DNA of 64,000 bases from Moniliella sp. 'wahieum' (GCA_003971905.1 RSEE01000037.1:372001-436000), one strand, 5' to 3'. Numbered from the stretch's first letter, positions 2,691 through 63,918 are shown. The notes: generated by a model not told the origin, from the sequence alone. Translations and numbers: made by a program.

Positions 2691-4605
2691 ATCGAAATCC
2701 GTTACGCGTTACCGCGGTTACCGCTTATAAAAAGCACTAAAAGTGAAAAACTGCGCAAAGCTAGGGTGTTGCGAGCGAACGAGGTGAGGTGTGGCTGAGG
2801 CCTGTGATGCATGTGAACGTTGGGAAACGGCCTGAGGTTGAGGTACCGGAAAGGGCGACGGAGAAAAGTTGGAAAAAGAAGTAGAGAGCCTATATCGGGG
2901 GCTTGGGGGCTGGAAAGGGCGTTGGGCGTGGGAGGTTGCTTGGACACGGCGAACGTGAACGTTGAACATGGATCAACGGTTCAGGCCTCAGGGTTCTTCA
3001 GGCATCAGGCATCAGGAGCTCAGGCTCTCAGGCCCTCAGGCACCTCTGGAAGCACTCTTGAGTCCAGGCCAACAGGAAAAGGACGATGGCGCGATAGCCT
3101 ATGACTATCTATCGGTATACGTAGCGTGGGAAGCTACAGGACCTGGCAGGCAAGACCATCGACCATCCATCATCCATCAATTTGCCCGGAGACTGCCGCC
3201 GAGCGAGAGAATTTTTGTCCGATCCTGCCGTCTGCCCCGCCGTACGGAGCAAACGAAGGGGACGTCTGCCATCGGTCGCAGCTCGACTGTTTCACTGCCC
3301 TCCCGTGCTCTCCCGCTTGCTTCAAACTGCCAAGCAAGCCCTGTACCGGACAGGTATGGAGGGTAGCTTTTATGCGCTGCCCGAACTCTGTAAAAGAAGG
3401 CACTTGTGCAGCACGCCATTCCCAGCTCGAGGCGGAATGGTTAATGGCAGGGGGAAGCGTACCGAGCCCAGCTGCGCCGGAAGCGAGGCCGGTAGAGAGT
3501 GCTGCGTCTGCGGGGGCTTGGAAGCAGGCTGGGTGCGGGACACGGATGGCGCCAGCGTTTGCGATTGTTTTTTTAGGAGGCATGGTTGCATGGTTGCGTG
3601 GTTGCCGTTTACGCGGTCATGCATTGCATCACCGGCGACCAGCCGTCCTTTCCGCAATCAATTTATCAGCCAGCGCCCAGCCCCGGCACGGTCACCGGTC
3701 ACCGGTCACCGGCCACCGGCACCTTGTTACATGCAGGTTCGTGAAGAGGTGACCCAGTGACCGGTGAGGCAACGCGTGGCGTCTGCCTATCAAGTCCAAA
3801 TGCCCACTAGCCACGAAGGCACAAGGTACTAGTCATTAGTCACATGTCACATGTCATGCATGTCACACGTCACAGGTTCACTTGATAAACGATATCGCCG
3901 GCCACTGGCCCCTAGCCACAGCACTTCGGGGCAACATCCCGTCTCAATGCATCTCACTCACCGATGCTTGCTGCAGCACGGCGCTTGTGTTGCGCTAATC
4001 TGGAGGGGCGCAGGGAGCACTAGGCGTGTTTAGGTAGTGAGCGTTTTGGACGGATGCACACCCAGGGCAAACGGACAGTATGCGTCGCCTCTGCATGCTG
4101 GGACGGGGCGTGTGCCTGGGGCTTTGGGCTTTGGGAGGGGCGATTGGCGCTTAGCGCTTAGCGCTTGCAGCTGGGAGGGGAGCACGCAGCGCCGTAGCGC
4201 CGGGCTGCTGCAGGCTGCCTCCTTGCCGGGACTGGGCAGCCAGGGTGCAGCGGCTGATAATGGGAGGCGCTGGGCCGCGCTGGGTCTGTGCACATAGATG
4301 CAGGCCGCCCGACACGCGTGCCTGCTGCCTGCTGCACTTGGTGCTCGTGCTCGCGCTGCTTGTGCTGCCCCCGTGCGGGGCATGGCGCCACTGGCCACTG
4401 CCCAGAGCCATCTCCCGCGTAGTATTCTCCTGCATGCAGCAGAACCTCCTCGCTGCCCTCGCCAGCAGCAGCCCCGCTCGCATCTGCGTCGCCGCCTCCT
4501 CCTGGGCCCGCTCCCTCTTGCCACCACCCCAGCACCACCCGCCCTGCGCGACGCTTCTTCCGGCCTCCGCTCCGTCCCCTCCTGCTCCCAGCACACCCGC
4601 GCCAC

Positions 4606-6495
4606 ATGCGTCCTGCGTACCCCCCCTGCATGGCGGCCATCCCGCCTATGCCCCCCGTGAATCCGCCATGGCGCCTCCCCCGTTGCCATCGGCTTCTGCT
4701 GGCATGCCCAAGCGCCCTTCCGACCACCATCTCTCGCCTCCCACCTCCGCCGCATCGCCTTCCCGCGGCTCTTCTCCACCCCAGCATGCGACCAATCGCC
4801 CGCGGCTCCCGCCCCTGCGTGGCTTGTTCGATGCACCGTCGCCGTCAGGCTCCAACGGCAACCTCAATCGTACGTTCAAATTCTTTCCCCCTTCCTTTTT
4901 CCCTCCCTCTACGTGCTGGCCATGTTGCGGCTTGGGCATTGGACGAGAGAGAAACGGCACACTGTGGCTCAGTGGTGGGTCACTTGGGCCCCGCCTTCTC
5001 CGTTTCTGGTGTTTTTATTTTTTTTGTTTCGGTGCTGGCCTGGCTCAGCGATGAGGCATATCCACCCTCAGATCTCAGAAGTCTTTCTCTCTTTCATGCT
5101 GAGCCGTCCTACGTTGCCCACGTGCTCCGCACTTCCATGTGCCCATCCCGGCTTTACTGGCTGCCTGCTCCTTTTACCCTGCTTTCGCTCTCACGCGTTC
5201 CCGATGGGATGGTGTGCTGACTGTCTTGCCCGCTCTTTCCTTTCATTTTTTTGATCATGTGGCACGGCTACCGTTTCGGATTTAACCGGTTCAGGCTCCT
5301 TGTCGATCAGTGCCGGCCCGTACCGTGAACGTGAACCTACTACCCCTCACGCCGTCGAGTTGGGTCGCAAGTGGCTGCGCCCCTAATTGCCCAACGGTCG
5401 CATTCGGATGCCAATCCATACTACCCATACAATCTTGCTGGGCCTGCCTACGGCACGGTGCCACCGTCCGTACAAGCACGCACACGAGGAGGAAGTGCCT
5501 CGTCTGCGCCCTCGACCTTTGACGTGGCCCCTGGCTTTGCTCCCCACGGCCCCACACCTCACCACGTACCGCTGGCAGCAGAGTGGAACGTTCCCCCGCC
5601 CCCAGGCACAGATTATGGCGAACATGGCCGTCATCACTCCTTGCCCGGCGCATCGATCCAGGGTGGGAGCGCCGCCAGTGGCGCCCTACTCGGGATGGAT
5701 GAACTGACCCGTGCCGCCTACATTTCCAATCTGGTCAATTCGATTGACCTTCAGCGCTCTCTTCGGCCTCGCGTGGGGGCGCGCGAGGGGCAGCCAGCGT
5801 GCGACGAGTGTCGCCGGCGCAAAGTCAAGTAAGTGCCTACCCACCCCTTTTGTGTGTGTTCATCCACTCACCTATGTCCAATTTGGCCTGAGCAGGTGCG
5901 ATCGCAACACACCCTGCCTCCGTTGCGTCGCGAGCAAACGGACATGCACCACGAACGACATGTTGATGCGCCGCGGCCCGTTAACGCGAGAGCAGCGCGC
6001 CGTGTTTGCCTTTTCGGGCATCACGTACGAATCCCACCGGGAACGGATGAAGAAGCGTCGACTTTTGCACCACGCCCAAATGCCATGTCCCCGCCTCTGA
6101 CCATCGCATCTACCTTCCCGCCCACCCCTGGCGCCGGGCCCAACTACCGTCCTCACTACCCCACCCCTGCCCCTATGCCCATCCCCCCAACGGGCCCGCC
6201 CCTGCCGTCGCCGACGGAGACCTATCCGGACTACCCTTATCCTCCGGACGAACGATACGATGCAAGTATGATGATTTCTTCCCCTGTGGCGCCGTATGAT
6301 GGCACGGGTGCGCCTACGCAGCAGGCGGGTATGCCTCCCTTCCCGGCCCACGTGATGGGACGTACGGGCTTTAGCTACGCAGACCCGGGTGCACCCGAGC
6401 GTGCCCGCGCTTTGCATCCCGTTTCCGTCGGCCCCACGGGGCCAAAATGGCATGGCTACTACCCGGCGCATGGTTCCGTGCCGTCCTCGTACTAA
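4606..6495 (+). CDS. Zn(II)2Cys6 (Gal4-type) transcription factor, Pro-rich
   Basis: ACDECRRRKVK joined by intron 5829-5895 (GTAAGT..CAG) to CDRNTPCLRCVASKRTC gives the full six-Cys cluster. Upstream donor at 4870 (GTACGT). The ATG at 4606 needs one extra C in the C-run at ~4620; further shifts near 5370 and 6060. Confidence 0.8.
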
Positions 6496-7538
6496 GATGG
6501 CGAGGGTTGCCCCGAGCCCTGATTGACATGGTGGCACTGGACCGTGCTATCTAGCCGGGTCCGCCAGGGCGAGGGCGACCGTCCCGAGTTGGAACGAACG
6601 GTGGTACCCCGTGCCCTCCGTACTGGTGGCTCTATCCCTTGTCGTATTTTCTTCGCCAGCCTGTGCCTGAGCAGGGTTCTTGGTTTTGCGTGGCTCATCC
6701 CTCTTGGGGCTCTCTTCCCCCCCACCCCCCCACCCCCACTTTTCCCCTTGTTCCGCCACTTCCTGGCCCACTGATGTTTGTACTGTTACCGTTGTTGCTG
6801 TGGTGGCGCAGAGCGCGTCTGTTTGTTTTTGTTCATACCTCCCTCGTTGCGATGCCTCCTATACATTTCCATTGCACTGGCAAGAAGCACCGGCTCGGGA
6901 GATACGCTGTGCAGGCCATCCTACATGCTGCAAGCGCAGCTGGGAGGAGTGGCATGCCTCGGCCTGTAACTTGGGTTGTCTGATGACAAGGGGGGGAATG
7001 TGTTCTGTTCCAGCCTGGCTTGAGGAAGTCCCCGCCCGGGCGGATTGGGGGGCACGCAGAACGCAAAACCGCTGGCGGGGTGCACTTTGCGCATCGCTGT
7101 TGCCCGGCGACCTATGGCAGGAGACCTCACGCGCGTACTAGTGCCAAAGAGGCTGACTAGTACGTCTGTGTCTACAGCACCCCCATAGCTAATCGAAAAT
7201 GCCAGTAACAAGGTTCCGGATAGATATGTGAGGACTACGTACGAAATTCAAGGTGGGCAAGGCCCACAAGATTGTGCACTAGAAATTTCGATTAACCATG
7301 CCGTTCCATCCATCGGGCATAACTCAATTGGGCGTACGCCTCCAGATTGACCCGACTGCTCGCACATGCCAACCCATTCTGCTAGGCACATAAGCGCTAT
7401 AAGCGGTGCTCGGATTCGCTCAGTTCCTGCAACGACAGCTGGCGGACGTGTAGCCCAGATCGAACACCAAAGGCAGCGGCAAGTGTATCCGCTAGGGAAC
7501 ATTGCTCTTTGACTTTTTGTGATCCTGGGAAGGCATGT

Positions 7539-7637
7539 GTTCTATTAGCTCAGTTGGCTAGAGCGTCCGACTGTTAATCAGACGGCCTTTGTCTTTGTGA
7601 CATCGGGAGGTCGTTGGTTCGAGCCCAACATGGAACG
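7539..7637 (+). tRNA. tRNA-Asn(GTT) with intron 7577-7601
   Basis: Acceptor GTTCTAT/ATGGAAC, D arm TAGCTCAGTTGGCTAGAGC, anticodon arm TCCGA-CT-GTT-A..A-TCGGG, T loop GGTTCGAGCCC, downstream TTTTT terminator. Confidence 0.95.
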
Positions 7638-10612: not shown

Positions 10613-11266
10613 GGGAAGAGCGAGGGCGAGGGCGAGGGCGAGGGAGCCAGGAGCGGATGGGGTGCCGGTGGGCTGGCTACAGAAGAAGTATAAAGCGCGC
10701 TGGGCCTGAGGCGCCCCACTCCACTCGAGCTCTGGCGCGCCACTTGGGACTGGGCCACAGCAGGCCACAGCAGGCCATCGCAGCCTCGGTGCTTGTGCAT
10801 TGATGCATGATGCATGGATGCACCCGCGCGCAATTGTTCATTGTTTCATGCTGCCCAGATGGTCTGATTTCATTTCGGGTGGAATGCGATCGAACGCGAT
10901 GGAAGGAGATGGAATCTATGCGACAAGACTGGCGTCGCGCGCTCACCGCAACTCCAACCCTATTCCCTTGCTTCACTCGCCTCGTGCCACCCGGTGGTGG
11001 CGACAGCGCCAATGCCCATGTGCCATGCCAGCGCACCAATGCGCCTGCGGGCTGAAGCTGACACGCTCCCCGCCGTTTCCTCGTGCCTACGCTTCCTGCG
11101 CCAGCAAACAGCCGAGTGGCAACAGCTACAGCAGTACCTACCCACACCTGGGTCTATCGCCACGGCCACTGCAGTCGAACCGAGTCATAGAATCATATCG
11201 CTTAGGAGTACAAGGAACAGCAGCCCAAGGCTGCGAGGACGAAATCGAAAAGGGGGGGACAGGGGC

Positions 11267-11932: not shown

Positions 11933-13470
11933 AGCAGGCTGACAGGGCAAAAACGGGGCGCTCGGGGCAGAAATGATGCTGATGCGGCTGGGCGCGGAGG
12001 GGGAAGACAACGAAGAGGGCACGGGGGCAGTCGCATCGTGGTCTTCCTCATCGGGCTCATCGGAGCTCCTGACTAGCCTGACGAGACTGCTTTCCTTCCC
12101 GGGCTCGCTGTCGCATTCCGGCATCCAATTATCCAATCCCATCCCATCCCACCTGGCGGCTCTGCACTCTGGTTTGTTGGCCGACCTGGGTGCCGCTATC
12201 TCTGACTCGCGCCGTGCCTGCTGCCGCTGTATCTCGTCCCAATGCGGTCGGGGTTTTCATCCGCCTGCCTCATGCGCGCACTGGGATAGATTTCGAGACT
12301 CGCTCAGGATGTAATGATCGATGATCGCTCGCTCATCGACCCAGTCTCTCAGCCATCTCAGCACAGTGGTTGCCTCAACGCGACGGCCCCCCTAGGAGGC
12401 CGCGTTGAACGCTTAACGTTTAACCAAGCCCGCAGCATGGCCACCGCGCAACGGGCCAGTGTTGTGGAAGATAGGGGAAGCAGGGATTCAGCCTAGCGAG
12501 GCATAGTCGGCCTAGTGCAGCTGTCTGATAGCCACAGTCTGGCCAGATTCATAACAGGCAACACGGCGGCTAAGGAGGAGCAGTAAGCCAGAAGGAGGAG
12601 GATGCCGATGGGAGAAGGACCCCCAAATGCAGCGTGGGCAACCCCAAGTGTGCCCAGAGCTCTACCTTGGGTGCCGGCTAGCGTCGCACAAGCCTTCCCA
12701 TGACCCTGGGCGTGGTCGATGGGATGGCTGGCTGCCAGGCGGCCACGTCGTGAAGAAAGTGCTTTTCGAGGGAAAACGAGATTGCCTCGAGGAGGATATG
12801 CGTTCACACGTTCACACGTTCACATGACACAGCCGACCGCATATGTCTCAAGCGGTGGGGGTTTGGCGGACTCAGTACTCATGAGTACTCAGTGTACTCA
12901 GCACTCACATGTCACATGTCGCACGTTCACAAGCAGCCCTCGGACGTTCACAGCTTGCCACCTCGGTGGTGCCGTGGCCACTGAGTCTCAGCTTTGTTGC
13001 TGGCCGCACAGAGCTACTGACGGGCGGACAGGGCAACCCTACCGTGACCAGGACCGACGGACTTGGTGCAAACGCACTGATAAGCGGGTAGGGTTGGGGG
13101 CGTGCAAGTGGGACGGGCAGCTTACGTCACGGTGCAGCCGGCAGAAACAGGCCCGAAGGATGCGCCGACAGCGGGGCGGCGTGCGGCTTGATTTGTTTGG
13201 AGCGCCGCCTTGGGGCGGCAGGTCGCACCAACGCCAGACGACAATTTAATCGACAGCCACAACCCCGCGTCAGCAGCTTCAGCCCAGTGCCAGAAAATTT
13301 ACACACAACCCGCCATGTGCAGCCCCGCGCCCGCGGCCAGCGCCAGCGTCAGCCCTGAGCCACAGCCGCCAGCGCAGCGGTAGGTGTCAGCGCACCTGCC
13401 CCACCCCACCCCCACCCACCACCACCACCACCACCACCACCGCCATCGCACCAGCTCCCCACCTCCGTGC

Positions 13471-15040
13471 ATGATGGTCAGTCCGTGGGTGCAGATCGCC
13501 TGTGCCACCACCTGGTGCCTCCTCTCGGCCGGCGTCTGCTTTGGCTTTGCAGCCATCAAACCCGTCTTTGTCGCCGAGGGTGTCTACGGCGACCTGTGCC
13601 AGCCTGGCCAGGCTCCCTGTCAGGCGCAAGACCTCCAGCTCAACTTTATGTGGACCGTTGCCGCCGGCAGCACCAATGCCGTGTCGCTGATCGTGGGGGC
13701 CGTGTTGGACCACAAGGGCCCCCGGCTCTGTGGATTCATTGGGGTTGCCTTCCTGACCGTCGGGGCACTGCTGTTGAGCGAGCAGCCCACGACCAGCTGG
13801 TTTGATCCCTTTATGGTTGGCTACTCTGTGCTTGCGCTGGGGGGGCCGTTTGTCTTTATCCCACATTCCAACTGGCCAACGCAGTGCCGGATCACTCGGG
13901 CAAGGTCCTGGCCGCCATCACAGGAGCCTTTGACACTTCGTCCGCCCTCTTTCTTTTTTACCGCTTGGCCTACCAGCACACGGCCAGTGGTATTGCCCTC
14001 TCCACTTTTTTCCGCCTTTATCTCGTCGTTCCCGTCTTCATTCTGTTCTGCCAGCTCTTCGTTATGCCCCATGAAAGCTACACAGCTGGTGGGCTCAAGC
14101 CTTTGGACCAGCTCGCTGAAACGGTAGACGATGCGACGGAACATGACCACCTGCTGGACCAACACGAGGAGAACCTATCGTCGTTTGGCCGCATTGGTGG
14201 CAATCAGGGCGGGGTGGCAGCAGGAACGAGCGCGTTCAGCATTGTTAGCAGTGTGCCCGAAGGCGGGCGTCTGGCCGCGCTCCAGTCTCATCTCAACCAC
14301 GACTCGTCCTACCTTGCCGACGTGCACGAGGACGTAACCGACCGTCTGATCCGCAAGACAGGCGGTATCTTTGGCATCCTGGATGGCCGCAGCGCCAGCG
14401 AACAGGTCCGTTCTCCTTGGTTCATGCTCATCCTGATCATGACCTGTCTCTGCATGCTCCGCATCAACTTTTTCATCTCCACCGTCGGCGCGCAGGAGCT
14501 GTTCCTTGTTGGGCCTTCTGGAGCCCGCACGATTGGCGATTGTTCGATGTGGCTCTGCCGGCGGGAGGTGTGGTGGCGATTCCCTTCATTGGTCTTTTGC
14601 TGGATGAGTTGACCACATTCCAGGTTCTGGAGGTGATGTGCACTGCCAGCGTGCTCACCGGTGTCTTGGGCTGCTTCCGCTCCTTTTGGCTCAACATTGT
14701 GGGGGTGCTGATCATGGTGGTGTACCGTCCGTTTTACTACTCGGTCACCACCGAGTTGGCTGCCAAGGTGTTTGGACCCATTACGTTTGGCCGTCTGTAC
14801 GGACTGATCATGACGCTGTCGGGTGTGTTCAACATGCTCCAAGCCGTGCTCGATCGCTCACTTCATGGCCCCCTCAATGGAAATCCCATCCCCATCAACA
14901 TCTTGCTCACGGGCGCGACGGCCGTGACGGCGCTGTCGTTGCTGGGGTACACGAAACACGAGGGCACGCGCAGACTCAAGCAGATCGCGGCCCAAGAAGC
15001 GGAGGAGGAAACTCCCCGTGGGCCCTATGGTGCAGTGTGA
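13471..15040 (+). CDS. FMP42: MFS transporter, FMP42/SLC43-like; frameshifted
   Basis: VQIACATTWCLLSAGVCFGFAAIKPVFVAEGVY, GAVLDHKGPR, AAITGAFDTSSALF, MLRINFFIST, YRPFYY, KVFGPITFGRLYG; shifts at ~13860 and ~14540. Confidence 0.85.
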
Positions 15041-15771
15041 GGGCTGAGGACCGAAGTGAACGCACATCTCCGCAGGGGGCTCCCGTCTCGCTCACACCAT
15101 GGGATTGTCCATCCTATACCGGTATCGACTCACATCTAGATTGCGTCGTGTGGGGCTGTGGTAAGGGCTGTATTGGGGGAGGGAACCGTCTCGATGGTGT
15201 AGCGCTGCTCTCGCCATGCCACTTCCAAAAGACTGCCGTATCTTCATCGTATCTTGCTTTTCGTTCATCCTATGCACGCTGCTGTTTCTTCCATGAATCA
15301 TCATCCAAAGCATTCGTCAACGCCCTCTGGGCTTGGAAAACTCCATACCCGGCCGCACATATGCGCCACTTGATAGCTTGGATTAGCACAGCTGCTGGTC
15401 CAACCCTCCTCTGCCGTGTGCGCGTTGGCAAGGACAATGTGGGACGGTGGGCAGCAAGACTGGGATGCGTGCTGAGGAAACGGAGGAATGCGTACTGGAC
15501 GGACGGTGTTGGAGGCTGAGGCGCTGATGGGTGATGCACGCATGCTGGCGAATGCGGGGCCCCTCTGCTTCTGGGTTGGAACGGATGCGATGCGTGCGAT
15601 GTGTAACCTGGGACATGTGATGGGTGACATTTGCCTCGGCTGTTCTCCACGCTGCAACGCTCGTGCGCCACGCCCCACTCGCCTGCTCGCACTCCCACCT
15701 GCTGCATTCCCCGCCCTCGCGTCCCGGCCCACCCGCGCTCGGCCGCCCCCACACGCAAACCCACCACCACC

Positions 15772-17972
15772 ATGGCCTCCCGCCCACCTGTGTCTGCGCC
15801 CCCCCCCATGGCGCCGCTGGTCCCTCTCCTCCCCTCCGCCCTTGTCCCCGCCGCCCGCGCCTACCTCATCGGCCTCCTCGCCGACACCTCCCCGCCATCC
15901 TCAAGATCCTCGTCAAGTTCGCCCGTGCGCATATGCGCCGTGTGGCCCAGATCAATCGCCGCCTGGCGGAAGAGCAGCTGCCTTTGGTGCCCGACAAGCA
16001 CACTCCCGCCCAGCGCGCGGCCGCCAAGGCCCGCACCAGCCACCTGGCCACCCGACAGACCCTGGGCGAAGCCCTGGCTGCCCTGCCCTCGCTTCTTCTC
16101 ACCATCCTTCGTGCCATCACCTCGGCTGCACACAATCCTCATGGGTTTGCCTTGTGCGGGGCGTTTACTATACTGCTGTGGCGCATCCTCCAAGGCGCCT
16201 TTTTGCAGCTTGTGAGCCGGAACCGGCGTGGCGTAACCAGCGCCACCGTTTATCGTGCGCGGGTAATCGCCTCGTTTGTCTCGGCCACCGCTTCGGCCGT
16301 GGTGGCTCTGCATTACCTTGCCTCCGGTCTCGCTCCAGTCCCCCGCCGCGTCGCCGGGCCTCGGGAAAGAGGCTTGGGGCGATCCCCCAGCAACGCCGTG
16401 CTCTTGTTCCGCAAACTCCAGACCCCTACCCCACTTGCCCCGGGAGGCCACTTTATGTCTCGCCTTACCAACTTGAGTATCCCTGTCTCGCCCAGCGATC
16501 CCGGTGCCATCTCTCCCGTCCGGAAGCGCACATTGTCGGGTACGGGTGCTGGATCACAAGAGTCGCCTTCTTCTCAGGTGGTACCCGAAGAAGATAAGCC
16601 CGTACCCAGCCCCACGCTCGAATTTACCCTCTCCCTCCTGGTCCGTGCCATTGATACGGCCACACGCGTTGTCCCAGTCGTCATGGCAAGGTCGGTAGTT
16701 GTAGCACAGGGCAAGACAGCATCGTTGCCATCGGCGGTGCAAAAAACCCCTCTTCGCCGCGCGCTGGGCGCAGCGGGGCACTGGGCTTCCGATCAACGTG
16801 ATGGCCTGTTGTTTGTTGTTTGCTGTGCTGAAATCATGTACTCATGGTTTTACGAGCCGCAACGCCTGTCGCCCATGTACAACAAATGGTGCGTCTGCTT
16901 TGCTTTGGCGCCTCGGCCTTTGTTGTTGTTAGGTTCAGGATGGTACTGACCCCGGAACGATGGTAGGATCACCAATCTGGCTTCGATGGACGTGCGCTGT
17001 CTGCAGGCGCTCCGATGCCACCGTACGGGCAAGCCGTATGTTTGGAGGTATGGTCAAAAGGAGGATTTGGAGGTGGGATCGATAGCGCTCATGTCGGGCC
17101 TGGCCGAGTCGCTTGGGTATCCATACGAATGGGGCGACCCTACCCGCGTGCCGCAAACCGCGGCGGAAGCCAAACTGCTGCGCGACAGCGCGCGGGCAAA
17201 GAACCGTGCGCGATGCGAAAAGGAGGGGATCGACTTTGAGTCTCTCCCGCCAATCGAACAGGACGCAGGCTATGTCCTGGCCGGTGCCGCCGGCCCACGT
17301 GGACGAGGTGAGATGGGTGGCGTGCCATGCGAGGTGGTCCATTGTGGCATCACAGGGTCCAACTGCTATGCCGATGCTGGTCTGCGTTGGCTACGTGGGT
17401 TCAAAGCCAGTTTGGCCATCTACATCCCGTTCATCTTGCCCCCCGTCTTCTCTTTGCCCCCCGTGCCTTTTTCCGGCATCCGTTTGCTGGGCTATGGCGG
17501 GCCCTCAAGGGCGCCTCACGGAGCAGTGCGTTCCTGGCCACCTTTATTGCCAGCATCTGGTTCTTGGTGTGTATGGTGCGCAGCGAAATTTGTCCTCGGC
17601 TTTTCCCCAATGTGTCCCACAACATCTGGGACCACGGCTACGGCGAGATCCTGGGTTCTTGGGGCTGCGGTTGGTCCGTATTTTTGGAGGAGAAGCGCAA
17701 ACGGGCCGAGATGGCACTGTACGTAGCCCCCGTGCGCTGTTTGCGCTGATCGAGTCCTTCCGACCGGGTTGGCTCAACGACCGACGTCATCTGTCGGCTC
17801 GGATTACCGAACGTACCCTCTTGGTCTCTCCACCGGTCTTCTCCTCACCACGGCCCAATTCCGCCCCGACTTGCTGCGCGGGATCGCTTCCATTCTTCCC
17901 TGGGTGGTGCGCGATCCATCCATGCGCAAGGTCCGCATCACGGGCGACCGCGCCGTGCCGGCCCTGTTGTAA
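15772..17972 (+). CDS. TMEM135/PXMP4-like integral membrane protein; spliced and frameshifted
   Basis: TLEFTLSLLVRAID; CAEIMYSWFYEPQRL..YNKW, intron 16889-16966, then ITNLA; VPCEVVHCG; GASRSSAFLATFIASIW; GCGWSVFLEEKRKRAEMALYVAP. Confidence 0.75.
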
Positions 17973-18412
17973 TTCTCACCATCCATGTCCTCTGGGCTGC
18001 TGTCGCGAGTTTGAGTTGGCCGCCTCTTCACACGCATACGCCATCTGTACTCGGTCCTCTCTCGGCTCCGTTCGTTGCTCTGCTAGCCTGTTTGTCATTT
18101 GGACTCTTTGTTTCCTGTTGCGTGCATGTATCAGTTTTGGTTGACGCGTTGACGGTCCCAGTTGCGCATGGATATACAGGCTGCCCCACTTGGGTAGTGC
18201 ACATGCACTGCGCTTGGTTCGTCGACGGAAGTTAATGCTCTGTGTGGATTCTATCGGGATGTACCATAGCGGATCATGCCACGCCCTACGCCCAGATCAC
18301 TGGCAGCTGCTGGGGTAGATGGTGAGGTATAGAGAGAGAGAGAAGGACTCCGTCGTCGACTTGGAACATCTGCACCACGGGTGTACGTGCCTTGCCCATG
18401 CGTAGACATGGA

Positions 18413-18507: not shown

Positions 18508-20022
18508 CTCCTTTTTGTTGTCAACATCTCGTTTTTTTTTGAGCAGCCTAAGGCGCTGTTTGTTACATGGTCAGAGCGATCCCCTGCCTGGGGCTCGATC
18601 GAGTTATTGGGCCAACCGGTCGGAGCTAGAGACGAGGTGTTGGCACCCACGTTTCCTTGCCACAGCGTCGACTCGCATGGTGAGGTTGGTAGATGCGCCG
18701 GATCGGGCAAGACGATCAACGTATCTGTAGGCCGGCGGTGGCCCTGATACAAAGGGGGCTGAGCGATTGGACGCTGAATGTCGACAGGAAAGGCGAAGCA
18801 GGCGACGCCAGGCTCAGGACAGTACCACAGGCAAGAGATCACAAGACAATGAGTAATACAGTTGAGGCCAGTGGAAGCTCATACATGTGTGGAACGCTTG
18901 AAGCTACAAGGGGGCCAGAGGTTCAACAGTGTTGCCATGACGAAGAACGTTGACGAACTGGCATGTCAAGACTCCACGTCGACTACATGGGTGACGGGCA
19001 AAACACATCAAATAGGGGACCGGCAGGATCTATAACAGACAGCACAAACTGTACCAGAACGATGAGATGGAAAAGTAGCCATGATTTACGCGTACGTACA
19101 GGGAGGCATCAGAATTTGGCCATCTCGCCTCCACGCCTCACGCCCCCCTGCAGCTCAGACGAGCACGGGGTAATGGGACGGAGGGTGGCCAGGTCATCGG
19201 AAGGCGACATCGACCCCGAAGGGAAGGGCCTTTGCTCCTCACTGCTTAAGGGCGAGACGTACAAGAACCAAAGGATTCATCCTCTGCCCTGTAAGTTGTG
19301 GCTCAAAAATAGAGCTGGCCAGACTCGGAAGATAACTGTATGCACAGATTCTGCTGAGAATGGTCTTGGTTGCATACAGGGAGCGCCCACCCACGCCTTT
19401 TATACCCTGCCGCCGCTGAAAAAAATGCCACGGCCTCCAGTCAAAAAAAAATTGTGCACTAGGGTTGCGGGCACGCCTCTGCCTCCACATGCGCAGTGCC
19501 TCTCCGGCGGCCTCCACCTCCACTTTGCCTCCACTGTGCCTGTAGTTCCGCTGGCCAAGGGTGTTCAACTCAAATTCCGCCATCTTGAACATTTTCGAGC
19601 GGTCGACAGAACTATAGTCTGACTCACTTGGCGGCCTCGATATTCAATTGACATTGGCCTCGAAGGGCAATTTAAGCTTTAAGCTTCAAGTACCGGTGAC
19701 CGGCCGGTAACCGGTAACCAGAAACAATGTACTCAACTTGAGTGTTCAACGCCTGTCATGAGCATTGGCCCATCTCTCTCGACAGAACTGCTCGTCCGAT
19801 GCTTACAGTGGGCTGTCCTCGTCGGTGTTCCAGACCTGGGCATACATGGAGGGGTGGGCTGGCAAGGATCAAACGTCTAGGAACATTGGGGTGCAGTTAC
19901 TAGTTATACGCCTAGTACACTACCAACAACTACAAGGGTTCAAGGGCAAAACACAAGTGCAAAGCATGCAAATAGGCATTAGTATGACAAAGGCACCGGG
20001 TCAGCGCGATCAGTGGTGCAGC

Positions 20023-21091: not shown

Positions 21092-23279
21092 GGTGACTGA
21101 GGTGTGGCAGGTGCAGCGGCGGAGAACGAGGGGAAGAACGGTTGAGGTGGGCAGCGAAGAAAAGGTGAGGGGCGGCGGCTTTATAGGAAGGTGCGGCGAA
21201 GACGCGGGCGCTGGACATGGCCTGTGCGCCAGGCATCTTCTCAGCACGACCGGCATCGAAGCCAGGCCCCACCGCGCACGAGGGCAGTGTTGCCTGGGGC
21301 GCCCAGGGTGCGGCGATGACGCCGGGCGGCGGCAAGCGGCGGGATTGCACCGGTCAGTGGTCACGCGATCATCGCAGCACTTTGGGCGCTGAGGCGCTGA
21401 GGTGGTGGGTGGTGATGCATGATGCAGGCGCATTCCATCACGCCATCCTCCCCCCGCCACGCCTGCTGGCCCTGGCCGCCGCAAGAGGGGTGGAGCGGAT
21501 TGCGCTGCGTGCCGCCGCCATCGCCGAGCGCCTCGGCCGCACCCCAGCATACGCCAGCGCCTCCGGGACATTCGCCACCCGAACAAGCGCCGCACCGTCC
21601 GACCGCTTCGGCTTGGCCTGTTCGACCTCTGTATTGAATATTGAACGTTCAGGCTGAACTGCAACGCTGCACTTTGAGCTAGTAACGAGTTGAACGCACT
21701 CACTCGAGCATGAAACTGATCGTCAACCTCACTGACCAGCCTGGCCGCCGCCCGCCCCGCTGCCTCCGCCAAGCATCCATATCTATCTCCTCTCTCCCTC
21801 CAGTCCGGCCCAATCGCCGCTGCTCCGCCTCGGGGACGGCAACAGCCAGCATCCACCCGTATCATCGTCCGTTCCCTCCCTGGTCGGCTTGGCCCATCGC
21901 CCATCGCCCATCGCCTATCGCCCATCTCCAGCTTCCAGCCAATCAGCGCTCAGCCTGAGCCGCAATTCAGCCAGCTCACCACCTCGTCCGGGCTGTCACC
22001 ACATCCTTGGCCCTCATGTATCCGCGCTCTCGCCGGCATCAGACTGATTCCTCATACGTCCAGTACCATGCATTAGCGCTGAGGCTCAGCCACACCATCC
22101 ATCAGGTCAATGGGTGACGTGTGACGCGTGCATTGCACGTGCCTGTAGGACTTAGTCACTAGTCAAGCTTCAAGTCACTAGTCACTATAGTCCTAGAACC
22201 ACGAATAGTGATCGAGTGAGCTGATGAGGGACCGCCGGGGACGGATGGCACTCTTCCACACAGCATGGGTCCCCCAGCAAAATGTCGATGAGATCGATGG
22301 GGCTACGTCGACGCAGAATGCGTATGACACAATCCATTTCACAAGCGACAAGGGGATTCCAATCGTGCCAGCTGCGCCTTCGAGGCGTCGTCGCAGGAGT
22401 CCGTCCCGGTCGGTCTCGATGTTCACCACCCGTTCAATTCAACCCTTGAAGCTTGAAGCCTGGTCGGCAAACCAATCAACGATGCTGAGATGGGTATGCT
22501 GATGCAATTCCATGCGCAAAAGCTGACATTATTACGGTTACCGTTACCAGCCATCCTGTGCTCCCAGGATCGATCGTATCCGCTTCCTGCCCCATCCTCC
22601 TCTTCTCAGCTTTCCCGACAAAAAAACGGTTTGCGCGTACTGACGAGATCGCCGATTGTATTGGGCATCAAGACTCAGAGGCGATAATGACTTCATGATC
22701 TCCAAAGCTTGAAGATCGACGAGCATCATCGACATGAATGATCACTAGATCACTAGCATCACTAGTCACTGTGCCTCAGCGCTTAGGCGGTGCTTTCAGC
22801 ATGAAACTAGTGCTTAGCAGCTGCCCTTAGTTCCCACTATGATATACGCGCCCTGCCATGACCAAGCTAAGCTGGTGCCGAGGAGTGCCAGCCTCTGCGC
22901 TCACTACTTGCTGCGCACATGGAGCGCATACAGCACACGAGCTCCTTGCCCTGCCCATGCGGCAACGATGGCTGCTCTTCAAGCGTGCCATGCTCCGCGT
23001 AGCCAACCCAAGAAAGCAAAACGAACGGCACATTTCGGGCTCCCCCTGCGCGCGGGGAGTACATTACAGGTCCAAATGCACAGTGGCAGCGTCCATCCAA
23101 GGCACCACAGGTGCCAAGGCGCACTGACCAAATTCGTGGTCCCGTAACAGGCCCCTCTCACGGCCAGGTGGAAGGGTAGAATGAAAAGAGCGAGGTGAGG
23201 TGAGGTAGGAAAGGAGAGGAGAGGAGAGGAGGAGGAGGAGATCGATGACAGAGCCCAGATGGCAGGTGCAGGTCACCAA

Positions 23280-32759: not shown

Positions 32760-34137
<1,378 letters not shown>

Positions 34138-50069: not shown

Positions 50070-51451
50070 TGTTGGCCTAGGGAGCCGGAGGCGGCAGAAG
50101 GATGAGGAGAAGGTGATGGATTGGAGCCAGAGTTGGGTCTGGGTACAGAGGCATATATAGGAGGCTGGACTAGGCACAGGGACAGTGAGTCACACAGGAG
50201 AGAGTGCAGGGCACAGGGACAGTGACACGCAGGGACGTCAGCGTGGAAGCCGATGGAACCGAGGCGAACCTGGTCTACCGACTGGGAGCCAGAGGATCAC
50301 AGTCAACACCCCCGCTGGCCAGGGAACCCGGAGACATCGGTGTGGGATGAGCTCCTGCCAGTGGATGTAGAGGGAGGACTTGAGTGGCAACCGGGACGAA
50401 TGGCCTGGAGTTGTGCATGGCCACACGACTGGCCTAACCCCCGCTGTCCAGGATGACACCTGAACGAGCCGAGCGCTTGTGGTTGGTGTATTGTGCGACC
50501 GCCAGATGCTTGTAGAAGTCTTAGAAGTAAAGTAGTAGGGGTTGCGCCCCGAAGCGATTTGGTGGGCAAAAGTAAAAAGCACCAGTTATAGGTGTAGTGA
50601 AAGAAAATTGGAAACTTGGAGTAATGCGGTCCAAGGTCGTTGGCATCAAATTGGATGCGTTTGGTAGTTGTTTGGTTCCGCATGCCTGGTGCCAGTGGGG
50701 TCCATTGGGCATGGGAAATGAACGGGCGCTATGCGTCAACCGTCTTGATCTGTTTGGGTTTCTTTGTTGTTGAAAAAGAGGAGTGGAAGAAGTTGGGTGA
50801 CACCCCCCCCCATCCTTTCCCAGGTGCCCCGGATGAATTGGCAATCCGGGGCGTGTAGCCGTGGGTGGGGCACTTGATGAGCAGCACACCCCCGCTTTCT
50901 GCGATTCGCCTGCGCCGTTTTGTCGTTGGAGAATTTCGTCTCGTTGACGATACCCGACACGTTTTGTTCCGTCGTGTGTTGTCCCTAAAAATCATTGCCC
51001 CATCTGTGGGGACGAGTGTGCCGATGTGGCGGTAGTATGCCGATGTGGCGGTAGTATGCCGATTGTGGCGGTAAGGTGCCGATTGTGGGGGTGGTGTTGT
51101 TGGGCGGGAGGACGGGTGTGTCTTGTGGGCTTGGCGGCTTAGCTTGGGCTGTAGGCTTGGGGGTGGGCTTGCTTGAAGAGCGCTCCCCTTCGGGGGGATC
51201 AGATTGTAGTTGTTGGCCTAGGGAGCCGGACGGGCAGAAGGATGAGGAGAAGGTGATGGATTGGAGCCAGAGTGGGTCTGGGTACAGAGGCATCTATATA
51301 GGAGGCTGGACTAGGCACAGGGACAGTGAGTCACACAGGAGAAGAGTGCAGGGCACAGGGACAGTGACACGCAGGGACGTCAGCGTGGAAGCCGATGGAA
51401 CCGAGGCGAACCTGGTTCTACCGACTGGGAGCCAGAGGATCACAGTCAACA
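50070..51451 (-). mobile_element. Non-autonomous LTR retroelement (TRIM-like), 1382 bp
   Basis: Near-identical LTRs 50070-50308 and 51211-51451, each TGTTG...CAACA; perfect 5-bp TSD ACAGA (50065-50069, 51452-51456); minus-strand purine run AGCGGGGG abuts the left LTR; no RT/integrase ORF. Confidence 0.93.
51016..51090. repeat. Four 19-20-bp tandem repeats inside the LTR element
   Basis: GCCGATGTGGCGGTAGTAT x2, GCCGATTGTGGCGGTAAGGT, GCCGATTGTGG. Confidence 0.85.
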
Positions 51452-51809
51452 ACAGATTTCCTCCCCCGCGTCTTATCCATTGTCGACCTTGAATCGTTGG
51501 CTCCTTTGGGCCTTCTTCGTCCCCTGCCAGCTGCTAACGTTGTGGCTTCGCTCAGATGATGGCACTTTCCATGTCGCTCGTGTCCCGCCTAGCTGCCTCT
51601 TCGGGCTTTGAATATGCGCCGTTACACAAGCTAACGAGATGCCGTGGCGAGGTGGTTCGGCATCGGAGGTGAAATGTTCATTTTCGGTGAATCCGAAGTG
51701 GTATTTCTGAACAGGACTTTTTTTCGTGTCCCGCTCATATAAACTCGTTTCCGATGACTTGCGTGCTGTCGTCGCCACCATCTCCACAACCCTGTCCGGT
51801 TCCCCAGCC

Positions 51810-53980: not shown

Positions 53981-54961
53981 ACTGCTGGTACCCCCCGCGC
54001 TAGCAGCATGCCCCACCCACCATGAGTTCATGCCGTTCAACATTCATGCATCATGGCTGCGTATCGGACTAGGATGCTCACTAGTCACTAGTCACTGCGC
54101 TGACGCTCACGACAGCGTCACTGCTAGTACTCACTAGTCAGATGGCCAGCACTCCTCTCGTCGCTCCGTCTCATTGATACGTCCACGCTGGGGCGACATG
54201 AGTCGATGATTTGGATGCTCAATCAGTAATCAGCGACATTGGCAAACCTGGTGGGGATGGTCGATGGGCTGGATGGGCACGATGGCCTGGGAGGGCTTCG
54301 GAGTGAAGCAGCGCGGTGATCGGTGATCGGTGATTGAGCGCTGACGTTTCAAACCCAGCAGGTCTGTACTGGCCTAGTGCTCCTGAACAGAGGCACGGAG
54401 AGTTTGTATTTCATTTGTGAGCGCGCTGAGCCTCCGCGCTGAGATGCGGCCAACGCCACGTGCAGGTGACCTTGAGATACCAGGTGTGGCACGTGACTGT
54501 CACGGGACCCCATGCTGGCGCTGCTTGCGCTGGCACTTGTGGATGCCATGCGCCGTGCCGCGTCGTTTGACATTTGGGCGCCGCTTCGTTTGAAATTGGA
54601 TCGAGGTTTGCCGTCTGGAAATTTGACCGGGTAGTACGGCAGGGCGCATGCTCTGCACCATGCACCGGTCGCCTGGACTCGCTACCCAGCCAGTCTCTCT
54701 GCGCTCGTTCTCGCGTCACGCGTCATCGATCATCGATCATCTCCGAAGCGCAGAAACCCAACACGCATATTCACCGCTCCACAGACACGGAACGCTGCAA
54801 TGCAGAGTTGCAGGGGGGCACAGCCTATTAGCCGGTTTGAAGCAACGCTCGGTCCATTCATGCCATCCATACACAGATCCACACCTCAATCGTTTCGCCC
54901 CATCGCGCATAGTTTGGCCAACAATCACCGGGCCTACCGCCGGGTCTGGCGGGGTCTGGCT

Positions 54962-55539
54962 GCGTACGGCCGGAGGGTGGTACATGAGAGCATTGCGACG
55001 CCTTTGCAACGCCGGGAGAAGGGGCTGCGTCGGCTGCTGGAACAAGCAGAACGCGACAAGAACGCCGAGTACCACAGGGACGCACCCGAGCGCCATTTTC
55101 CCCTTTGGTTTTGACGACGCGAGGATACTATGTCACCAAGACGGCGGGCAAGATGCTTGTGAGAGCTGGAAGGAATTAACGTTTAACTACTGAGTCTCAG
55201 AATTGAGTCTCAACATTCAATGGAGATGGTTCTCACTACGTTCACTGCTCGGATGTCTACCACGTTCATCCGTGTCCACACGCGCTACCTCGGGTATTAT
55301 GGGAACGGATGGTGGGCACCAGAGGGTCCGGATCTATTGACAATTCCCTAGTTCCTTAAACGGGGTTGGCGCTAACAAGCAACACACGCCGGATGAACGG
55401 GTCGGTTTAGGCGCACAGGGCTTCTTTGTCCCAGCCTCAATTAAGCTCTGTCAACGATATGGTTACGGTATAGAGTTTAGGCGCAGCGTTTCCTTGTCCC
55501 AGCCTTAAGCTCGGTCAATGATATGATGACAGTATAGAG
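54962..55539 (+). mobile_element. Degenerate 3' fragment of an RLE-type (CRE/Cnl1-like) non-LTR retrotransposon, copy A
   Basis: RRVVHES.ATPL.RREK..LEQAE.DKNA.Y..FPL, colinear with 57050-57520 in inverted orientation; contains insertions, frameshifts and a tandemly duplicated 3' end. Confidence 0.75.
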
Positions 55540-57049
55540 ATACCCCCGCTTTTCATTATGTGAATCATTTCACCGTGCCCGATGCTACTGGCGGAGACAT
55601 GAGGATCGTGCAGTTAGCCCTCGTTGTCATGGGGTGAGTCCCGAGGTAGACCCCCACCCTGTTGGTTACGGGTACAAACCCTCGGACGGCCAATCGGCGC
55701 CACGTACGGTGTGTCCGGCCCGCAGATCCTGGTTGTGAACTCGGTGAACCGAGCGGGTGTAGAGGCGAGGGAGAGACCCTCTAGTTTTGGGGTGGCTGCC
55801 TGGGTGCCAAGGCCGCAGCTCAGTCCCTCCGAGGTGGGAGCAGCGTACATATAGGTCTTCAGGCCAGTTGAAGGAGTCCAGGAACTCCGTAGGTTAGCTG
55901 GGGTGTGTTACCACACTCGACGCGCTGTAATATAGACAGAATCAGACGGAGTCCTAACGAAGAGCAAGCGCTAAGTAGTACTGAGAGTTACGGCGGCTTT
56001 CAGTGTAACCGACGCGAGTCGTAAATTCGTAAGGGTGGAAGAAGATGGAAGGGCGAGAGAGGAATGGAAAGGTTAGAACGGGGGCAGGTGTATCAGGGTG
56101 AACAGGGTGATCATGTGTAACACGATGGTCGATAAGGACCCGTACGCAGCATCAAGCCTTGATGCCTCCGCCCAGTTTCGGACGCTTCCTGATGTCGCTA
56201 CGTTTTTGGAAGATGCGTTCCCGTGCCTAACCCCCATTGGAGCGACTAAGTCTACTTTTTCTCCAAAAGCACCGCCATATCCATAGGGGGATTACGAGCA
56301 TTTTTCTCGTATGCTCTCAACATGGTCATCGGGGTTGCCGCGTCGCTTGCTGTGGTTGTCTGGCGCTATATACCTTAAGGAATCGGCAGGGTCCCAGTTG
56401 GGAATCCAGTTGATCCACCAAGGTGTCGCTTACGGTATGCTCTGGGGCTGGGACTTAGTACCCACCCTTTCCATCACGGGCGGACTGCTCATGTGTGCCT
56501 CTGCGACTCGCTTGTGGTGCAAAGAAGAGCCAGCGGCCGTTCGCTGGCCCGCCCTCTCGCTTAGAGTCAGTGAAAGTTACAAAAACCTCTACCTTCTTGA
56601 CCTCTTCGCTGGCAGTGTTCTGCTTGTCTTCCTCTCTTCATTGGGTTTGCCTTTCATTCCGAGTGGGGCGTCGTGCGTGCCATCACACACAACATGGTGC
56701 TCGGTCGGAGTGCTTGCGCCATGGTTGCCGTCGGGTTCAAAGCGCGTTGGTCACAGCCTCTTCTCTTTTCTCGTCTTGCTCCTCTCCCTTTTCAACCTGA
56801 TGGCAGTCAACAACTTTTGGTCAGTCAAGATGAAACACCCCTGCTATGACTTTTGCGTTACGACTTTCGTAACTTTCTTCATTGTATAGGTGGTCTACTG
56901 CTATTGGCCACAGCATCGTTTCTCGTCCCTACTCGATTGACGAGAGCGAAACGGCAACGTAACAATAAGACACTCACCGGCGCTCACCTCGGATAGTGCA
57001 CATGGGGTTTCGTTCCCTTCGATCGTTGTCGATTTGTTCTGCGATGCCA

Positions 57050-57646
57050 ATATAGTATGACCACGTCCATTTCATTGACAGAGCTTAAGGCTGGGACAGG
57101 GGGAACGCCACGTCTAAACCTAACCGTTCATCTTGCGGGGGTTACTTGGGGGCGCCACCAGGGTCAAGGGACCAGGGGGATCGCCAGGATATCAGGACCC
57201 TCCGGCTCACGCCATCCGGTCCCGTACCCTAGGAAGCGCGTGTGGACACGGAGGAACGTGGTTGACATCCGAGCGAGGAACCATTTCCACTGAGACTTAG
57301 TAGCCAACTCCTTCCAATGCGCGAACAACTTGCCCGCTGTCTTGGTGCCGCAGTATCCTCGCGTCGTCAAAACCAGGGGGAAAAACGGCTCTTGAGTGCG
57401 TCCCTGGTACTTGGCGTTCTTGTCGCATTCTGCTTGTTCAAGCATCCGAAGCAGCTCCTTCTCCCGCCGTTCCAAGGGGGTTGCGGTGCTCTCATGCACC
57501 ACCCTCCGGAACGCGCTCTGCGCCGCCAGTGATCCCGTGTCGCGCAGCGTGTGGTCTACCTCCATTCCTGATCCTCCGAGTGCTCCGGGCCCCATCACGC
57601 GGTAGTCGGTGCGCTGCGTCCTCTGTCTTCTCCCATCCTCGTCCAT
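57050..57646 (-). mobile_element. 5'-truncated RLE-type (CRE/Cnl1-like) non-LTR retrotransposon, copy B
   Basis: Open 160-aa ORF with the restriction-like endonuclease pattern RTD..D.T...K..KY...FFPLVLTTRG, plus a 3'-UTR homologous to copy A. Family assigned by motif recognition only. Confidence 0.72.
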
Positions 57647-57790
57647 TATGACCTATAAAACATCTCTGGCAATTGTAAACTACTTCTTTGTGGTCTTGTC
57701 AGCACTGCCCATTCAACACTTGATCTTTGGACAAATAAGCATAGAATTTGAGATAATTCGCTGGGTTTGCGGCCTTGACCAATGATGAAC

Positions 57791-58794: not shown

Positions 58795-58973
58795 CCAGGT
58801 GGTGGTAGGCGGCGAACAGGCCTCAGGCCGTCTCCTGCCCCCTCTCAGATCTGGGTCTCAGGGGGCATGACATGTGACAGCATGGTTACGCTGCGCTGTT
58901 GCGCGTTACACGCGTGACGTCATTTCTATCCAATCGTGCCCAACGCTACACATCGGTGACTAGTGCCTAGTTG

Positions 58974-60074: not shown

Positions 60075-61461
60075 AAGTGCGATTGCATAATCCTCCAGTA
60101 GGCAATCGGAATCTCCAGGGGCCGTCCTGTCAGTTGGAGGTGATCTAGGTGTCCATCACTGCGCCCAGTGACGCCTTTGTCAAAGGCTAGCGGCGCATCT
60201 GCACCCTCATGTCGCTGAACCATTCATCATCCTACACCCGTGATCCACATGCGACCCCCCACCTAGACCAGTGTCCAATCCATATCGACTGGACCCCTCA
60301 CTGTTGGGTTTGCTTTGGGGAGAATAGGCAATACGGCTTGGACATGTGGACTTGTCGCGCCTTGAACGGGAGCCTTGGCTAGCCAGAAACTCGGCTGGGG
60401 CGTTCATCCCAGGTTGATTCCGACCCACACAGAAGGAGAATGAGCGAGCCACAGATAGATGCTGCCGTGCTGGGTCCGGCAATGAAAGCGACGTGTGGCC
60501 TCCCATCCGCACGGGTGGCATTATCTGGCTCCGGGTGGTGGTGGTGTTTGAGCAAGGATGTATTTGTAAAGTGAGTGGAGGGGATGGATATTCCGAGAGA
60601 GGAGCCCGTTAGGGGCACAGAACATATAGGAGGGTGTCACATCGAACAGCGCAAGGTATGATGCGTGACAGCTACATGCATGATGCATGATGGCGCTGAC
60701 AACGACATGTGATAATGTGACGTGTGACATGTGACAACACAAGCGAGCCAGTCTCCAGCTGCGGTCGCCGACGTCTCGACCCAGCGCCGCATCGGTGATG
60801 TGGCGTAGGCCACAGCAGCCACAGCAGCCACAGCAGGCCAGAGCTGCCACAGCATCGAGAAGAGCAAGAAGCTTGGGGACGCAATAAGCGTCCTGGACTG
60901 GCGGTGGGGCCGGAGAGCACAGGCTTAGTGTCGGCGCTGCCCAGGCACGGACAAAGCCACAAGCCACGCAGGCGCAGGGGGTCCTCTAGCAGCGTCTCGC
61001 CTGTCTAGCCTCCTCTCCCACAGTCTCTTCCAGCTGGCTGGGCGCGGGGGGGTTGTGCTGGTGTGCCCGTCGCTTGAAGAGCCAGCGGCCAGCTAGCCGG
61101 AGGCTCGGACGCCCATGCTATGGAGCTTCCGCGCGTCACGCGTCGCGTCGCCGGAGCCTGACGGTGACGCGGCGACCAGTGGTGTGTGGTGCGTAGCACC
61201 TGACAGGTGACATGTGACATGTGGCGTGACGCGTGACGCGTGCCGGTGCTCAGGCTGTGAGCTGCTGACGCGCTGACGCAAGGCAGAGCAAGAAAGGGTG
61301 AGCCGTGGTGCTCAGCCTGAGCTGAGCCCGGTGAGCGCGAGCGCTGAGCACCTGCTGATCTGGTTCCTGGCCGTCGGTTCGTGTCGACTTGCTCAATTTC
61401 GAGCCAGGACGTGCCGGCTGCCACCCGCCTTTCTCCTGCCCACCACGCCCCTTCTCCCCCC

Positions 61462-63488: not shown

Positions 63489-63585
63489 AGGTCCCACTGG
63501 GATTCGAACCCAGGTTTCAGGAAGACGATAGTCATCAGAAAGATGCATCAGAATCCTACTTGCTAACCAACTACAATATGGAACC
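63489..63585 (-). tRNA. tRNA-Gln(CTG) with ~24-nt intron
   Basis: Minus strand reads GGTTCCA-TATTGTAGTTGGTTAGCAAG-TAGGA-TT-CTG-A..T-TCCTG-AAAC-CTGGG-TTCGAAT-CCCAG-TGGGACC-T, followed by a T-run. Confidence 0.95.
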
Positions 63586-63870
63586 GTTGAAGGATGGTTG
63601 AAATCTTCCGGGAAAGACCAAATACCACGCGGAAAACTGAGAATGAAGCATCCGTGCTTTGTTTGGGGTACCAGGCATGAATGGATGAATGGAACCAAGT
63701 GTGCACCATGACTTACACAAACATCACCGGGCACCTAATGCACAATGAAGTTTGAGTCCGTTTAGGGAGAAGGAAGAAACGGGTGCTAATGTTGACCAGA
63801 TATCCATGGGGAGTCTTCTATGGAGCGCTCCCTCTCCGACTCTCCCCCTCCCGCGCACAATGACTTTCCT

Positions 63871-63918
63871 GGGTCTGAGATCTGATATCTGACCGGTGAC
63901 TTCTGACCTGTGACCTGT
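63871..63918. repeat. Six TGA triplets at exact 7-bp spacing
   Basis: TGA at 63876, 63883, 63890, 63897, 63904 and 63911, separated by GATC, TATC, CCGG, CTTC and CCTG. Confidence 0.9.

Follow-up and report, generated by a model that had tools for sequence, protein, structure and literature searches.

What process writes short palindromes at a fixed spacing between genes? We address this question for a 64,000-nucleotide stretch of Moniliella sp. 'wahieum' DNA (GCA_003971905.1, RSEE01000037.1:372001-436000), the whole of which is called the window here. A preliminary description had reported arrays in which the triplet T-N-A (TNA) recurs every 7 bp, with a self-complementary 4-mer (the core) between successive triplets. 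We find that the arrays obey a simple context rule, and we suggest that they are mutational scars, namely the excision footprints of a hAT-like cut-and-paste DNA transposon that makes a 7-bp target duplication and leaves hairpin flanks, a reading to which we give a probability of about 0.5.

Strength, specificity and placement of the 7-bp pattern

The pattern is real and very strong. By scoring for TNA + 4-bp palindrome + TNA we obtained 88 hits in the window compared to 6.8 ± 2.4 (maximum 13) in 100 dinucleotide-preserving shuffles. Every array position named there is recovered in the hit list (2981, 3690, 3840, 4147, 10801, 12872, 12907, 19673, 21414, 21635, 22156, 32769, 32984, 33286, 33322, 33359, 42064, 54078, 54723, 61208, 61227 and 63876). 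When all 16 outer pairs X-n-Y were compared, T-n-A alone was enriched, the other 15 lying at about 0.5-1.7 times expectation. The cores comprise 14 of the 16 possible 4-bp palindromes, where at least 12 had been claimed; TTAA and TATA are absent and the top core accounts for at most 10 of the 88 hits. Fourteen different cores exclude a single transcription-factor site, as had been argued earlier. A more restrictive 12-mer, TNAxy-y'x'-TNAxy (primes marking complements), occurs 92 times on the two strands, where two shuffle estimates give 0.27 or 0.13, and its density is about 1.4 per kb.

Among exact tandem repeats of at least two copies, period 7 shows the largest absolute excess (53 compared to 3.4 expected); the counts for the other periods are 54 compared to 14.6 (period 6), 11 compared to 0.67 (period 8), two (period 9) and three (period 10). 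A 6-bp palindrome lies inside 35 of the 53 period-7 tandems, being of the type A....T in 34 of these 35, and inside none of the 54 tandems of period 6. About ten of the 53 contain neither TNA nor a palindrome, and at 21892-21926 a non-palindromic period-7 array without TNA, GCCCATC x5, is a heptamer repeat outside the rule.

The two N of a hit are identical in 78 of the 88 cases, and five of the ten remaining hits carry complementary N. C or G takes the N position in 60 of the 78 hits with identical N and in 30 of 38 clean events. Since this share in clean events tracks the 77% of TCA or TGA among the 2378 TNA triplets of the window, N follows the availability of TNA sites and is itself unselected.

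Coding DNA was represented by the 7175 bp matched by Pfam domains, and these stretches alone were used because G+C content at third codon positions (GC3) and reading-frame length are poor coding indicators in this GC-rich window. Merging of the 92 12-mers gives 55 loci, none of which falls in Pfam-matched DNA where 6.2 would be expected, so that the avoidance of coding exons, previously judged by eye, holds when counted. It fits the purging of frameshifts by selection. Alongside the 92 perfect 12-mers there are 84 near-misses that satisfy eight of the nine constraints (8.6 expected), and because of these we conclude that the scars are decaying and that the process has been active over a long time as well as recently. 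An assembly or sequencing artefact would neither avoid coding DNA nor give such graded decay, and we hold it to be extremely improbable.

The loci cluster in intergenic gaps. Likely divergent promoters contain the largest clusters (12.0-12.9, 32.8-33.4 and 41.6-42.5 kb), and some arrays are found on the downstream side of genes (19.7, 34.6 and 63.9 kb). The promoter clusters would suit selected regulatory arrays, that is, binding sites such as the bZIP half-sites TGA/TCA or TTA/TAA kept in promoters, and some cores presumably resemble known regulatory motifs. Selection for binding is however hard to reconcile with 14 cores and an unconstrained N, with decayed copies about as common as perfect ones, or with the arrays downstream of genes, and it would not be expected to make a core foretold by its two neighbouring bases, as described below; we consider it very unlikely. 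At 33322-33345 and 61224-61242 several scars give rise to ACGCGT tandems or to other palindromic hexamers a short way upstream of genes. We take ACGCGT to resemble a known fungal cell-cycle promoter box, and the scar process might seed regulatory sites of this kind.

The duplicated unit and the source of its core

The bases that flank a hit predict its core. In the 78 same-N hits the period-7 match extends exactly two bases past the second TNA in 25 cases and exactly two bases before the first TNA in 15, chance being about 5%; the peak is at two bases on one side and none on the other, and in four of the 78 hits only is there continuation on neither side. Because the continuation peaks at exactly two bases on one side, the elementary event converts TNAxy to TNAxy-y'x'-TNAxy, or is the mirror image of this conversion on the opposite strand. 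Among 119 pairs of the form TNAxy-NN-TNAxy both spacer bases are inverted in 92, one in 22 and none in five, and where a 5-base direct repeat is present the inverted length is 0, 1, 2, 3 or 4 bases in 5, 6, 92, 2 and 0 cases, respectively. The claim that the core can be predicted from local context is thus upheld.

The preliminary description had framed this event as a 5-bp duplication plus a 2-nt inverted copy. That grammar holds, but a 7-bp unit with TNA at its centre (l2 l1 T N A x y) is the better description. Whereas TNA-containing 5-mers recur most often at period 7 (69 compared to 1.9 expected), they also do so at period 8 (20 compared to 2.0) and period 9 (16 compared to 2.0). Full nnTNAnn 7-mers stand head to tail, with no spacer, in 25 cases compared to 0.13 expected, and with a 1-base spacer in eight compared to 0.1, and in seven of these eight the spacer complements the base beside it, as expected of a palindromic (P) nucleotide. 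A fixed-length target duplication is therefore seen on both sides of these junctions, at spacers of 0 and 1, and 92 of 119 two-base spacers and seven of eight one-base spacers are inverted-complement copies of the flank beside them. Of seven period-8 events made of a palindrome and one more base, five have as that additional base the one to the left of the first TNA. The second copy of the main event type keeps five of the seven bases of the unit, and this commonest outcome fits the replacement of two bases of one 7-bp copy by the inverted end bases of the other.

Both flanks serve as template for the core. The hits form 69 chains, of which 54 have a single core, 11 are double and four triple, giving 19 in-phase neighbour junctions, and six chains combine two distinct in-phase cores about a single TNA. 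In these six the two left-flank bases foretell the left core in four cases, and those on the right foretell the right core in five. Chain 54716, for example, reads cg TCA CGCG TCA TCGA TCA TCGA TCA tc, with CGCG taken from the left CG and the TCGA cores from the right TC; the flanks ag..ag of chain 22156 accompany CTAG and AGCT, and the flanks cg..cc of chain 32836 accompany CGCG and CCGG. Mixed junctions make up six of the 19 in-phase neighbours compared to about 25% expected, by our own arithmetic, from a simple model of choice between two flanks.

We put the non-coding TNA sites at about 950, a rough estimate which assumes that about 40% of the 2378 TNA are non-coding, and on this estimate about 9% of them (about one in eleven) are scarred. 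The same TNA was hit again 19 times where random choice would give about 8, an approximately two-fold excess by rough arithmetic, and strong re-targeting of hot spots was rejected at this level. The self-regenerating growth proposed in the preliminary description is therefore only weakly needed.

Slippage, by which chance self-complementary 7-mers would expand through folding, deserves mention here since exact-unit arrays reach 3.6 units, folding is better than in shuffles for two of four palindromic arrays (z = -3.1 and -3.6), and (ACCGGTN)x3 is also found in at least 123 prokaryotic stretches. The other two palindromic arrays fold no better than shuffles, however, and the 54 single-core chains show no expansion. 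The clean event moreover places two inverted bases between copies of five direct bases, an inversion that slippage cannot make, as had been pointed out before. Bacterial heptamer tandem repeats are alike in their period of 7 and unlike in being single arrays with no multi-core grammar nearby: a prokaryotic control of 704,812 bases, including metagenome locus L001, yields only 26 rule-following 12-mers built on a different core, and a single locus supplies 19 of these, compared to 92 12-mers per 64,000 bases here; the presence of one such array therefore does not entail the grammar. As the source of the scars slippage is already contradicted, and we allow it very little likelihood.

Proposed excision footprints and competing mechanisms

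The inverted bases are separated by no loop from their template and therefore point to hairpin opening, which leaves P nucleotides. We infer a hairpin, a nuclease and a transposon behind the scars. The element would insert at nnTNAnn and duplicate 7 bp, and on its excision each flank would be sealed as a hairpin, comparable to hAT, Mutator-like and Transib/RAG chemistry. A host nuclease would then nick each hairpin two bases off its tip, giving 4-base self-complementary 3' overhangs, xy-y'x' at one end and, built on the two bases of the left flank, l1'l2'-l2l1 at the other. The preferred cut of the hairpin-opening nuclease Artemis gives a 4-base 3' overhang. End joining would retain one overhang and discard the other, so that the net gain would always be exactly 7 bp, in the form TNA + palindrome + TNA, with a core from the winning flank. 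A second visit to the same TNA would yield an identical unit or the core of the other flank, and so build arrays and mixed chains; at an earlier scar both overhangs would be identical and could pair, lengthening the array by one unit, and slippage may add units. Events in coding DNA would be frameshifts and would be lost. Footprints of this kind would account for the 7-bp period and the palindromes, for the context rule and the choice between two flanks, and for the minor period-8 class.

The chemistry invoked here is already known from other systems, and published work describes several of its parts. Transposases of the hAT, Transib/RAG and Mutator-like groups make flank hairpins (PMC5499845), and Ac/Ds footprints in haploid Candida albicans consist of short deletions and palindromic P nucleotides with two dominant types (PMC5873905). 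Basidiomycota elements with 7-bp duplications are represented by hAT7 in rusts and Kyakuja in mushrooms (PMC12730594), the hAT element TcBuster has the target nnnTAnnn with a central symmetric T..A (PMC10512250), and Artemis opens hairpins either at their apex or at a distance of 2-4 nt (PMC13041557).

Likeness to these systems is in each case partial. In hAT footprints (Ac/Ds, Hermes) copies of the target duplication are likewise joined through a few inverted-complement flank bases, the host decides the dominant types, and haploid fungi are among the known hosts (PMC5873905, PMC5499845). Here, unlike there, the unit is 7 bp rather than 8 and centred on T-N-A, one junction type (two P nucleotides, two bases lost) makes up 92 of 119, and the scars reach about 1.4 per kb and are stacked in arrays with no element in the window. 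The elements hAT7 and Kyakuja are alike in being basidiomycete DNA transposons with 7-bp duplications, but they are reported from rusts and mushrooms, respectively, and not from smut relatives (PMC12730594). V(D)J coding joints (RAG/Transib, Artemis) share the short palindromic additions from off-tip hairpin opening (PMC13041557), but belong to a vertebrate somatic process at defined signals, without target duplication or arrays. The T-N-A recalls the TAA/TTA target of PIF/Harbinger (PMC4423477), although N is mostly C or G here, in proportion to the available sites.

Several neighbouring mechanisms were rejected. A 3-bp duplication of the Harbinger/CACTA type cannot put a copy of the two outer bases between two TNAs and cannot give the rule. 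Of the likenesses drawn in the preliminary description, hairpin opening with P nucleotides fits best. Tc1/mariner footprints consist of TA + element ends + TA, with palindromic filler between target copies. Their filler comes from the element ends and is constant, whereas the 14 cores seen here are copied from the flanks, and footprints of element ends were rejected because the cores are too variable. Fill-in of staggered cuts (as by Top2- or Spo11-like enzymes) would give direct copies only and no inverted bases, and retention of both overhangs (period 11) is represented by no clean case.

A number of observations weigh against excision footprints. In the window there are no elements with inverted ends and TNA-type duplications of 7 bp, and those of 5 bp and 3 bp are at shuffle level; Pfam finds no transposase family in the 265 reading frames of at least 100 amino acids. 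At tens of copies per genome, however, none would be expected in 64 kb, and we therefore do not count the missing element and transposase as evidence against the model. The text consulted on hAT7 and Kyakuja documents no TNA-centred 7-bp target, and its supplement gives consensus sequences and no duplication sequences for them (PMC12730594). The near-invariant two P nucleotides are tighter than the varied Ac/Ds footprints, the 2-base spacers between full 7-mers are of the P type in none of three cases, and the left cores of the mixed chains at 26986 and 42064 are unpredicted by their present flanks. The density is extreme, with 88 cores for the roughly estimated 950 non-coding TNA sites. The unit also departs from the canonical hAT target, which is 8 bp (nTnnnnAn or nnnTAnnn) rather than the 7-bp nnTNAnn seen here. 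A 707-bp candidate element at 22073-22785 was rejected, being explained by two similar arrays at its ends. A search of metagenome contigs with the protein of a neighbouring gene as query gave one weak 2.8-kb match (42% identity over 53 residues), with no scar event.

There is also a real, if smaller, chance that no mobile element is involved, and that the insertions are endogenous and TNA-directed, made by a resident hairpin-forming nuclease or by a special repair or replication error. In this case a 7-bp palindromic unit would be added per non-coding TNA at roughly the rate of single-base substitution. The nuclease form of this idea, a domesticated transposase or site-specific nuclease that would cut with a 7-base stagger around TNA and form hairpin ends, with repair writing the scar, accounts for the grammar as the transposon does and sits well with the lack of element and transposase in the window; a hit rate of about 9% of non-coding TNA, as estimated, would also be more readily reached by a resident enzyme than by a low-copy element. 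Known flank-hairpin chemistry requires transposon ends, however, and the 7-bp duplication requires insertion or fill-in, the latter alone yielding no inverted bases. We know of no element-free nuclease of such a kind and think it unlikely, although it cannot be told apart from a transposon on the present data.

As a replicative counterpart, a short template switch would have the growing strand copy two bases of the opposite strand after TNAxy, return at the near-palindromic TNA and copy TNAxy again. Inverted and direct copies would then both come from local context, as observed, and TNA is its own reverse complement save for N, the second N being complemented in five of the ten unequal-N hits. 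The symmetry argument fails for CNG, GNC and ANT, which are equally symmetric yet unenriched. The inverted copy is moreover almost always exactly two bases long, no microhomology is required for any of the 14 cores, and full 7-mers with a single P base misfit a return at TNA. The template switch, which the preliminary description had placed beside hairpin opening, therefore appears improbable to us.

A literature search, with most subscription journals outside its coverage, found no description of TNA-plus-palindrome heptamer arrays in fungi. What we could not find described is the combination: a 7-bp TNA-centred footprint of nearly a single type, at more than one per kb, stacked in arrays and mixed chains. 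If the arrays are transposon scars, excision footprints, which are usually rare, would be a main source of intergenic insertions in this window and would leave a readable fossil record of transposon activity, target choice and host hairpin opening; short tandem repeats and palindromic hexamers could then arise without slippage. If no element is involved, the arrays would represent a new class of sequence-specific mutation that continually writes palindromic hexamers, potential protein-binding sites, into promoters. The usual microsatellite surveys, covering units of 1 to 6 bases, ignore period-7 repeats, and for this reason the pattern may be overlooked in other fungi.

Array catalogue, genes and other repeats

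The arrays and their coordinates are listed in Table 1.

Table 1. Arrays and single events of the TNA-plus-palindrome type, with window coordinates; the strand field is "." throughout (no strand assigned).
Coordinates	Strand	Content
2956-2992	.	TGA-ACGT-TGA-AC and TCA-GGCC-TCA-GG, two single events; left extension 0 and right extension 2 in both
3689-3723	.	TCA+CCGG, three exact units, then decayed units
3839-3874	.	TCA+CATG array including variant units
4147-4166	.	TTA+GCGC, 2.9 units
10801-10816	.	TGA+TGCA array upstream of the aldehyde dehydrogenase gene
12801-12824	.	Period-8 array; repeats of the 7-mer GTTCACA with one P nucleotide as spacer
12870-12920	.	GTAC events (one with complemented N, TGA..TCA) and TCA+CATG array
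19671-19719	.	TTA+AGCT array, then TGA-CCGG-CCGG-TAA-CCGG-TAA-CC
21385-21426	.	Period-8 unit GCTGAGG + C, then TGA+TGCA
21632-21659	.	TGA-ATAT-TGA-ACGT-TCA; second junction a 10-bp perfect palindrome (long P stretch)
22154-22187	.	Mixed chain CTAG/AGCT around one TCA, then a second CTAG array; flanks AG..AG foretell both cores
22445-22770	.	TGA+AGCT event (22445-22459); period-8/9 TCA+CTAG series (22740-22770)
26986-27235	.	TGA-GCGC-TAA-CTAG-TAA; TAA-ATAT-TAA; TTA+CCGG array
32769-32861	.	In-phase chain AATT, ACGT x4 (decayed), CGCG, CCGG x2; divergent promoter adjoining the Arf gene
32965-33372	.	At least nine further arrays (CTAG, GTAC, GTAC, ACGT, CATG, AGCT, CGCG, GGCC) in the intergenic gap shared with the 32769-32861 chain
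34575-34703	.	TGA+TGCA and TGA+GCGC events downstream of the Arf gene
41727-42510	.	Period-8 unit GCTGAAG + C; TGA+TGCA; chain TCGA, TCGA, ATAT; TTA+CATG
54044-54741	.	TCA+TGCA; TCA+CTAG array; non-palindromic TGA+TCGG array; chain CGCG, TCGA, TCGA foretold by CG..TC
60676-61279	.	TGA+TGCA; TGA+CATG twice; TGA+CGCG; period-8 unit GCTGACG + C
63874-63966	.	TGA+GATC and TGA+CCGG events; near-palindromic arrays TGACCTG and TCAGCGT

The window is eukaryotic DNA of about 59% G+C. A chitin synthase reading frame (28863-30158, minus strand) is 78-89% identical to proteins of the smut relatives Tilletiaria, Pseudozyma, Kalmanozyma, Sympodiomycopsis and Tilletia, and judging from these identities we treat the source as a Ustilaginomycotina-like fungus. 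The genes recognised by Pfam along the window encode NDUFA12, an aldehyde dehydrogenase, a histone, an aldo-keto reductase, a RabGAP, the chitin synthase, Arf, an LRR protein, a MutS homologue, a lipoyl protein, IGPD, SURF4 and a mitochondrial carrier. At 13384-18141 (plus strand) eight long, mutually overlapping frames lack a Pfam match; they may be one large gene split by introns or frame changes.

Among the prokaryotic stretches, one locus of 37% G+C (L057) carries, next to a CCGG array, an extended TNA+CGCG array with 19 12-mers that follow the rule. Many bacteria, Streptomyces, Gemmatimonadota and Acidobacteriota among them, have tandem (GGTCACC / GGTGACC / GGTTACC)n arrays 20-47 bp in length (L002-L124), and several of these arrays share their right flank.

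Direct repeats of about 235 bp at 50071-50305 and 51213-51455 start with TG and end with CA, enclose about 900 bp without a long reading frame; the 5-bp repeat ACAGA flanks the pair. This stretch, the sole clear mobile element of the window, looks like a small non-autonomous long terminal repeat retrotransposon. A long inverted repeat (54970-55525 and 57067-57509), in several blocks with arms of up to 135 nt that are 79-91% complementary, encloses about 1.5-2.3 kb including the SURF4-like reading frame at 56287-56886.

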